A DNA stretch of 50,212 bases from Escherichia coli (lineage in GTDB: Bacteria > Pseudomonadota > Gammaproteobacteria > Enterobacterales > Enterobacteriaceae): the NCBI RefSeq assembly GCF_003334315.1, contig NZ_QOWR01000032.1. The stretch is one strand, 5' to 3'. Positions 1 through 50,212 of this stretch are shown here, piece by piece. How positions within the stretch are numbered: position 1 is the first letter of the stretch; each line of letters begins with the position of its first letter. The notes below the pieces were generated by a model that did no database searches, was not told the origin of the DNA, and saw only the letters and a program-made list of their open reading frames with translations. Made by a program: the position numbers and the translations under genes.

Positions 1-438
1 AGGCCGCAGTCGGTAACCTCGCGCATACAGCCGGGCAGTGACGTCATCGTCTGCGCGGAAATGGACGAACAGTGGGGCTATGTCGGGGCTAAATCGCGCC
101 AGCGCTGGCTGTTTTACGCGTATGACAGTCTCCGGAAGACGGTTGTTGCGCACGTATTCGGTGAACGCACTATGGCGACGCTGGGGCGTCTTATGAGCCT
201 GCTGTCACCCTTTGACGTGGTGATATGGATGACGGATGGCTGGCCGCTGTATGAATCCCGCCTGAAGGGAAAGCTGCACGTAATCAGCAAGCGATATACG
301 CAGCGAATTGAGCGGCATAACCTGAATCTGAGGCAGCACCTGGCACGGCTGGGACGGAAGTCGCTGTCGTTCTCAAAATCGGTGGAGCTGCATGACAAAG
401 TCATCGGGCATTATCTGAACATAAAACACTATCAATAA
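1..438 (+). CDS. insB: IS1 transposase InsB, 5'-truncated by window edge
   Basis: Frame 1 is open from base 1 ([20 protein letters not shown] then [24 protein letters not shown]...HYLNIKHYQ, stop 436..438); this is the C-terminal portion of IS1 InsB as I remember it. Confidence 0.9.
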
Positions 439-453
439 GTTGGAGTCATTACC
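1..453 (+). mobile_element. IS1 insertion sequence, 3' portion (window begins inside the element); right terminus ends at 453
   Basis: InsB-frame translation runs from base 1 through 438; element ends ...ATCAATAAGTTGGAGTCATTACC at 453, which matches the IS1 right inverted repeat as I recall it. Confidence 0.9.
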
Positions 454-1153
454 CACTTGCGTTATCGCGGTGAAAAACGACGTGTTGTTTATCATCTTCA
501 ATGAACGAACCATGCTGAATAGCCACTGCCATTGCCGCATCCAGTCCGCTCAAGGATGTTCCCATAATACCCACGTTACACGCATCGACCTTTGCTTCCA
601 TCAGGCCTGACCACGGGCTGGGAAAATACGTTCGGGTTGCTTCTTCTTCATCAGGCCAGACGTGACCCGTGGCAATCACCGCTAAATCAAACGTCTCGCT
701 GGGTAAATCCTGATTTGTAGCGAGCATGACGCCAGCATTTGTAATTTGCAGATCGGTAACCTGGCATGATTCATAAACAGCCACTGCAAATTTTTGCTTT
801 CGTGCCTGGTCTACTAATCGTAAAAATTGATCGCGGAAATATTCGCCCAGCAGAATTCGCGGTAAAAACTGACGATCGTGCAAGGTTTCTTTTTTAACGC
901 CATAACGCTGGAGATGGCTGGCTTCTTGCTTTTGTAGCCATTCGAGATACGTACAATAAATCGGCGGTATTTCAATACTGGCAATATTTGCCAGCATCAT
1001 TTTTGAGTTTTCCTCATCACTGTATGGCATCCCGACACCGGCCTCGTCAGCCTGCTCGAAGATAGAAATAGAAAGTGGAGTTTGTTGCTGTAGAAGCGAG
1101 AATAAGGTGTAGATCCCCGTAGGCCCGGCACCCACAATAGCAATTTTTTTCAT
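454..1153 (-). pseudogene. ydhS: ydhS (FAD/NAD(P)-binding oxidoreductase) 5' fragment, truncated by IS1 insertion
   Basis: Minus-strand ORF 449..1153 (234 aa) begins MKKIAIVGAGPTGIYTLFSL (Rossmann GxGxxG motif). Recalled YdhS is about 534 aa; here the frame runs into the IS1 terminus and stops at 449..451 inside IS1. Confidence 0.7.
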
Positions 1154-10440: not shown

Positions 10441-10484
10441 TCCATTTCACTCCAGACCCTAACTTCAGCTCCTGCAAAATCGCA

Positions 10485-10500
10485 AGGTAAACGTTTGCCT
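10485..10500. promoter_or_regulatory. PurR operator (pur box) in the purR 5' leader
   Basis: AGGTAAACGTTTGCCT, about 45 bp upstream of the purR start codon; second copy of the AAACGTTTGC core. Confidence 0.6.
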
Positions 10501-10738
10501 TTACACACCTTACGCACAACAAAAGTGTTGCGGTACGCCGGAAAAACGACACGGAGCGTCAGGAAGGGGTCAATGGCCAGTACGCAAATAGTGTAAGCGT
10601 GGAATTTTGGCCGATCTTGACGAAAAGGGGAAGTGGTAAAAACACTTATCATTATAAATGACGGGAGATTTTTTCATCACAGTGTGTAAAAATGCGTAAT
10701 ATCACTTTTTGTGTGGTAATAAAAAAGGAGAAAACTTG

Positions 10739-10828
10739 ATGAGCACCGACCTTAAATTTTCACTGGTAACAACGATTATCGTCCTCGGTTTGATCGTAGC
10801 CGTGGGTTTGACTGCCGCGCTGCACTGA
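10739..10828 (+). CDS. ynhF: YnhF small membrane protein (29 aa)
   Basis: ATG at 10739 preceded by AAGGAG RBS; translation MSTDLKFSLVTTIIVLGLIVAVGLTAALH (single TM helix); matches my memory of K-12 YnhF. Absent from the ORF track because it is below the length cutoff. Confidence 0.65.
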   Translation: MSTDLKFSLVTTIIVLGLIVAVGLTAALH

Positions 10829-10993
10829 TTTCCTCTCGAGGGAGCGCGTTCTCCCTCGCATCTCCTTCCTGTTTGTTAGCAAAATGGCAAAAGTGTTTTC
10901 TCTTTTTGTTATTTTCATTTTTTTGTGATTGCTGTCATGCTTTCGCCACTTTAATGAATATCGCGTAATGACGCGAAGAGGTGGAGATAAGGC

Positions 10994-47313: not shown

Positions 47314-50109
<2,796 letters not shown>

Positions 50110-50136
50110 TCCTCTCTTTATCTGCTATACCTGGTA

Positions 50137-50212
50137 GGTAATGGTGCCAACTTACTGATTTAGTGTATGATGGTGTTTTTGAGGTGCTCCCGTGGCTTCC
50201 ATCTCCATCAGT
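50137..50212 (+). mobile_element. IS1 insertion sequence, 5' end (left inverted repeat and start of insA), running off the window
   Basis: GGTAATGGTGCCAACTTACTGATTTAGTGTATGATGGTGTTTTTGAGGTGCTCC matches the IS1 left terminus; a GTG at 50192 opens an insA-like frame (VASISIS...). Same orientation as the IS1 copy at 1..453. Confidence 0.85.

Follow-up and report, generated by a model that had tools for sequence, protein, structure and literature searches.

The window analyzed here, a stretch of 50,212 nucleotides of Escherichia coli DNA (contig NZ_QOWR01000032.1), ends inside an IS1 element that begins shortly downstream of the malI gene. What is this element, how did it come to lie there, and what became of the native DNA that normally follows malI? 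At both edges the window cuts into an IS1 copy, 453 nt of it being visible on the left and 76 nt on the right. The two are in direct orientation, and the interval looks like either a Tn9-style composite unit of ~51 kb or a contig bounded by repeats.

The insertion site itself can be placed to within one base. The malI gene is identical to its K-12 counterpart at 1029 of 1029 positions in the nucleotide comparison, and its stop codon occupies 50107-50109. Native-type BLAST matches to complete E. coli genomes end at 50137; the native spacer continues with a G there too, which leaves a one-base ambiguity of the junction. The initial annotation had placed a second IS1 27 bp 3' of malI, and this is what we find: the spacer at 50110-50136 is native and IS1 starts at 50137. 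The last 9 nt of the spacer before IS1, TACCTGGTA, would be the expected target-site duplication of the right-hand IS1, as in strain EC291 (Table 1). The native malI-hdhA spacer is 111 nt long, and downstream of the insertion site it contains the terminator-like hairpin GGCACACAGGCGGTGCC and, after it, a T-run; together these form a predicted, probable terminator of malI. The element thus lies past the stop codon of malI but ahead of this putative terminator, where insertions are likely tolerated.

Table 1. Features of the window and comparable IS1 insertions in the malI-hdhA spacer of complete E. coli genomes
Feature	Position	Strand	Remarks
IS1A-type right part (IS1 nt 316-768), cut at window edge	1-453	+	453/453 to K-12 IS1A
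ydhS truncated by left IS1, 234-aa ORF	449-1153	-	stops inside IS1 end
malI ORF, intact, 342 aa	49081-50109	+	upstream of insertion; annotated malI in matching genomes
Native malI-hdhA spacer, first 27 nt, TCCTCTCTTTATCTGCTATACCTGGTA	50110-50136		identical to K-12 and ~5400 E. coli genomes
IS1X4-type IS1 left end (IS1 nt 1-76), cut at window edge, GGTAATGGTGCCAACTTACTGATTTAGTGTATGATGGTGTTTTTGAGGTGCTCCCGTGGCTTCCATCTCCATCAGT	50137-50212	+	76/76 to full-length elements
Left terminal inverted repeat (IRL), 23 bp, GGTAATGGTGCCAACTTACTGAT	50137-50159	+	compare IS1A IRL GGTGATGCTGCCAACTTACTGAT
insA, first 7 codons, GTG start, VASISIS	50192-50212	+	start = IS1 nt 56, per MG1655 IS1A annotation
IS1A in ET220	malI TAA+16	+	9-bp duplication TTTATCTGC
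IS1A in EC291	malI TAA+27	opposite	9-bp duplication TACCTGGTA; exactly the window's site
IS1A in VTB97420v	malI TAA+28	+	9-bp duplication ACCTGGTAG
IS1A in strain 81	malI TAA+50	+	9-bp duplication AGGTTAATG

The visible 76 nt open with a hallmark of the IS1 family, an outer inverted repeat of ~23 bp that starts with GGT(A/G)ATG, the right inverted repeat lying outside the window. The GTG start and the seven insA codons are the same as in intact elements, the zinc-finger cysteines lying beyond the window. Compared with K-12 IS1A, 68 of the 76 positions agree (89.5%), the differences falling at IS1 nt 4, 8, 55, 64, 65, 67, 70, and 76. Two of them (nt 4 and nt 8) are the mismatches between the window IRL and that of IS1A (21/23), and the visible insA codons yield a single substitution in the protein, V4I, besides three silent changes. 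The same 76 nt are found without mismatch (76/76, E = 3e-31) in IS1 copies of many E. coli chromosomes and plasmids; among 9,383 matching E. coli records, 884 carry this end at an identity of at least 99%, and most of the others have IS1A-like ends at 90-95%. Given this identity, E value, and number of records, the IS1 match is far beyond chance. The initial annotation had read this end as that of a divergent isoform, from several departures from the canonical left end and from an insA frame opening with VASISIS instead of VASVSIS. The canonical IS1A terminus on which it relied proved correct against the K-12 sequence, as did its coordinates and its count of 76 nt, translation confirms both openings, and the eight departures from IS1A, together with full identity to a widespread variant of the IS1X4 family, uphold the reading of a non-IS1A isoform.

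Isoforms of an insertion sequence are grouped by nucleotide identity of about 95% or more, or amino-acid identity of about 98% or more. The right copy is not nearly identical to K-12 IS1A, with 89.5% identity over its visible part and 93.2% for the full-length elements that serve as its proxies. These proxies were drawn from nine sampled loci with the exact 76-nt end, of which eight are full-length and the ninth is cut after 248 nt by the start of the record. The eight full-length loci agree with each other at 764-768 of 768 positions, the frameshifted transposase being intact in most of them, and the partial ninth matches the same isoform at 248/248. The full-length variant shares 716 of 768 nt (52 mismatches) with IS1A and 733 of 768 (95.4%) with IS1F, the nearest K-12 isoform. 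It encodes an intact 91-aa InsA, with V4I and D15E relative to IS1A, as well as an intact 232-aa InsAB' that depends on an A6C programmed -1 frameshift motif (nt 307); this motif and insB, which for the window copy lie outside the visible part, occur in every full-length element with the 76-nt end. InsAB' reaches 247 bits against the IS1 family transposase model NF033558, and the identical WP_223216367.1 is named "IS1-like element IS1X4 family transposase" by NCBI. We take the label IS1X4 from NCBI's name for this protein. It denotes an ISfinder isoform of IS1, listed in the literature as an IS1-family element of 768 bp (PMC5001619), and another genome paper uses the name as well (PMC10383658).

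Comparison with the known elements leads to the same assignment. With the IS1X4-type elements of E. coli 4/4, FDAARGOS_497, AR_451, E41-1, and ATCC 43886 the window copy shares the IRL, the base preceding the GTG, and the VASISIS codons, a comparison limited to the 10% of the window copy that is visible; the malI TAA+27 site was not found for this isoform in the collections searched. K-12 IS1A (NC_000913.3, 19796-20563) shares with the variant the family, the length, the IRL, the insA start at nt 56, the A6C motif at nt 307, and insB. It also makes the same 8-9-bp duplications and occupies the same malI-hdhA spot in EC291 and VTB97420v, but differs from the full-length variant by V4I and D15E in InsA and by more changes in the InsB part. 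IS1F, the divergent IS1 located near fecI in K-12, resembles the window copy in carrying A at nt 4 and in an InsA start that reads ASISI, but its insB is a defective pseudogene (the fused frame stops at 162 aa), in contrast to the intact 232-aa InsAB' of IS1X4-type elements. As the identity of the right copy, K-12 IS1F is ruled out by a match of only 69/76. IS1 classes with ~96% identity to this isoform and an IS1X2-family element were rejected as well, their left ends differing from that of the window (68-70/76). Thus, as to the visible 76 nt, the right copy can be assigned to the IS1X4 type with high confidence, and a full-length IS1X4-type element is very likely. Judged by its sequence, it is a known, catalogued isoform whose visible part is identical to hundreds of copies, at a site that is new but unremarkable.

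Mosaic IS1 elements occur as well. The identity between IS1A and the variant is patchy, with 226/229 positions shared in nt 128-356 and 158/182 in nt 357-538, which suggests past exchange between isoforms. In E. coli WCHEC005237 (NZ_CP026580.3, 637259-638026) we observed a mosaic IS1, 96.6% identical overall to the IS1X4 type, that combines an IRL of the IS1X4 type (GGTAATGGTG) with an insA start of IS1A (VASVSIS); this combination points to recombination among IS1 isoforms.

The copy at the left edge is of the IS1A type. Its 453 nt match K-12 IS1A throughout, the IS1X4-type element at 418 positions, and IS1F at 410; this holds for IS1 nt 316-768, nt 1-315 lying outside the window. It ends with the right inverted repeat at position 453, native ydhS homology begins at 454, and its orientation is that of the right copy. 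The window shows IS1 nt 316-768 of the left copy and nt 1-76 of the right one, which leaves no shared stretch to compare; judged from full-length proxies, the copies very probably represent different isoforms, and if both are full-length they would be ~93% identical (716/768).

The ydhS insertion is shared with other strains. An exact-protein look-up in public assemblies found the truncated YdhS on 13 contigs of close relatives. Two long contigs of 95 kb, with 1 mismatch in 10.8 kb relative to the window, have the ydhS::IS1A junction in common with it, and in draft relatives the contigs break off after 73 and 125 nt of the left IS1. The junction is present in several Logan assemblies and in the drafts GCA_958329015.1 and GCA_023276455.1, and this recurrence marks a small lineage. 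In E. coli 042, an IS1B element lies in ydhS at another position. The 95-kb contigs of the relatives are unbroken and malI is 49.7 kb from the ydhS junction; these relatives therefore lack an IS1 in the malI-hdhA spacer. From this comparison, the right-hand insertion is probably a later, strain-specific event than ydhS::IS1A.

Between the two elements the window is ordinary chromosomal DNA. Its body (454-50136) follows the order of complete genomes of the commensal, K-12-like type such as 2017.13.01CC at ~100% identity; these genomes have neither IS1 copy, and the equal coordinate offset in both halves relative to 2017.13.01CC means that the body contains no net insertion or deletion. Neither IS1 junction was detected among 5,426 complete E. 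coli genomes or in PLSDB plasmids, and an exact 30-mer across the right junction was absent from JGI metagenome contigs. We considered whether the window could be chromosomal DNA copied onto a plasmid or into a composite transposon, and rejected this because no PLSDB plasmid has either junction and the body runs collinear with that of chromosomes. The variant itself occurs in abundance on plasmids from Escherichia, Klebsiella, and other genera, and a plasmid origin of the right-hand IS1 is plausible.

Several RNA features were observed in the body of the window. The minus strand carries a tandem pair of tRNA-Val(GAC) genes at 1692-1768 and 1773-1849. A match to the Rfam antisense family 'HPnc0260' (plus strand, 1568-1730) overlaps one of them and, because of this overlap, is probably a reflection of the tRNA and not a separate RNA. 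A full-length match to the enterobacterial sRNA family STnc550 (396 bits) occupies 10441-10831 on the plus strand and starts directly after a 341-aa LacI-family (purR-like) ORF on the opposite strand.

Did the insertion remove native DNA? Other genomes with IS1 in the same spacer allow a comparison. Among the 5,426 complete genomes, four contain independent simple insertions of a 768-bp IS1A in the 111-nt spacer (Table 1), and in all four the rest of the spacer and an intact hdhA follow the element. The initial annotation had held that the insertion replaces the sequence normally found after malI. This part of it is not supported, since the 27 nt after malI are native, the window shows nothing on the far side of the IS, and the four comparable spacer insertions are simple, with hdhA intact.

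The best overall explanation, with a probability of roughly 0.8, is that an IS1X4-type element transposed into the malI-hdhA spacer of a commensal-type E. coli. The element would have entered past the stop codon of malI and ahead of the predicted terminator hairpin, as a full-length 768-bp copy in which insA is intact and the A6C frameshift site and insB are present. The resulting structure would be TACCTGGTA-IS1(768)-TACCTGGTA-GTGTCC...hdhA, that is, the 9-bp duplication, the rest of the spacer, and hdhA. This insertion would be separate from the IS1A insertion in ydhS and, in its most probable order, would have followed it.

Another scenario is that the IS1 marks a rearrangement boundary, formed by an adjacent deletion, an inversion, or recombination with another copy, and that the native DNA after malI is no longer adjacent. 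The window shows nothing past IS1 nt 76, and the malI-IS1 junction is absent from every collection searched. IS1 is, moreover, known for adjacent deletions and replicative rearrangements, reportedly described by Turlan and Chandler in 1995 (cited in PMC5001619). Simple insertion, however, is the default outcome of IS1 transposition, and it is the outcome in four of four independent spacer insertions, each with a 9-bp duplication and hdhA intact. The close relatives are contiguous across the region on their 95-kb contigs, and comparison with complete genomes shows no indel in the body of the window. Taken together, these observations make a rearrangement unlikely.

A further reading is a right copy that is mosaic or truncated, either joining the IS1X4-type left end to IS1A-type or other sequence or being partial; its identity to the left copy could then depart far from 93%. 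The mosaic left end in WCHEC005237 and the patchy identity described above show the kind of element that would be involved, and a partial IS1X4 copy has been reported from a Klebsiella plasmid (PMC5001619). Moreover, the full-length variant at an identity of at least 99% occurs in 750 E. coli records, as against the 884 with the 76-nt end, so that ~15% of the records with this end lack such a full-length copy. Against this, all eight full-length loci with the exact end are one isoform, and we regard a mosaic or truncated copy as improbable, somewhat more so than a rearrangement. Finally, the terminal 76 nt could be an assembly artefact, the contig having ended in a collapsed IS1 repeat with the isoform taken from another genomic copy. 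The window does start and end inside IS1 copies, a de Bruijn assembly with k=77 would give a k-1 close to the 76 nt seen, and the draft relatives also break off a short way into their left IS1. Yet the 453 nt of IS1 at the left end do not fit a k-mer overhang, in a graph assembly the bases beside the unique flank come from junction-spanning reads, which anchors the first tens of bases to the site, and the eight diagnostic positions are scattered over the whole visible end, the first at nt 4 and the last at nt 76. An artefact is thus highly improbable. Transposition of an IS1X4-type element remains the preferred explanation.

If both copies are as proposed, the strain carries two direct repeats ~49.7 kb apart that differ in sequence. 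The mismatches between IS1A and the IS1X4-type element are clustered in nt 1-127 (14), nt 357-538 (24), and nt 609-678 (10), and the longest identical blocks are 94, 83, 71, 70, and 46 bp. In bacteria, the minimal efficient processing segment is at most ~30 bp, and mismatch repair aborts strand exchange that meets mismatches (PMC8918686). Because the blocks of 94, 83, 71, and 70 bp exceed the ~30-bp minimum, recombination between the copies would be lowered, not abolished. It is plausible, as the initial annotation proposed, that the ~7% divergence lowers RecA-mediated, mismatch-repair-edited recombination between the copies. Homologous recombination between these direct, ~93% identical copies could nevertheless delete or duplicate the ~49.7-kb interval, at a reduced rate.

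The recurrence of insertions in one short spacer also bears on how IS1 selects its targets. Positions TAA+27/28 have been hit independently at least three times (in the window, EC291, and VTB97420v), by two isoforms and in both orientations, and two more insertions lie within ~25 nt. The target at +27/+28, GGTAGTG, resembles the IS1 end GGTAATG. In older work, target choice of IS1 was described as a regional preference for AT-rich DNA with some homology to the element ends, and a literature search on hot spots and isoforms of IS1 brought up nothing specific. We tentatively consider that TAA+27/28 may be a sequence-directed IS1 hot spot, a suggestion to which we give appreciable weight but somewhat less than even odds.

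In summary, the strain has at least two IS1 isoforms, the chromosomal IS1A type and the IS1X4 type common on plasmids, the latter hinting at traffic from plasmid to chromosome. The 49.7 kb from ydhS to malI lie between direct repeats that differ by ~7%, which bears on the prediction of deletions and amplifications and on the assembly of such genomes. If the hot spot in the malI-hdhA spacer is real, it would provide a natural test site for target choice by the IS1 transposase.
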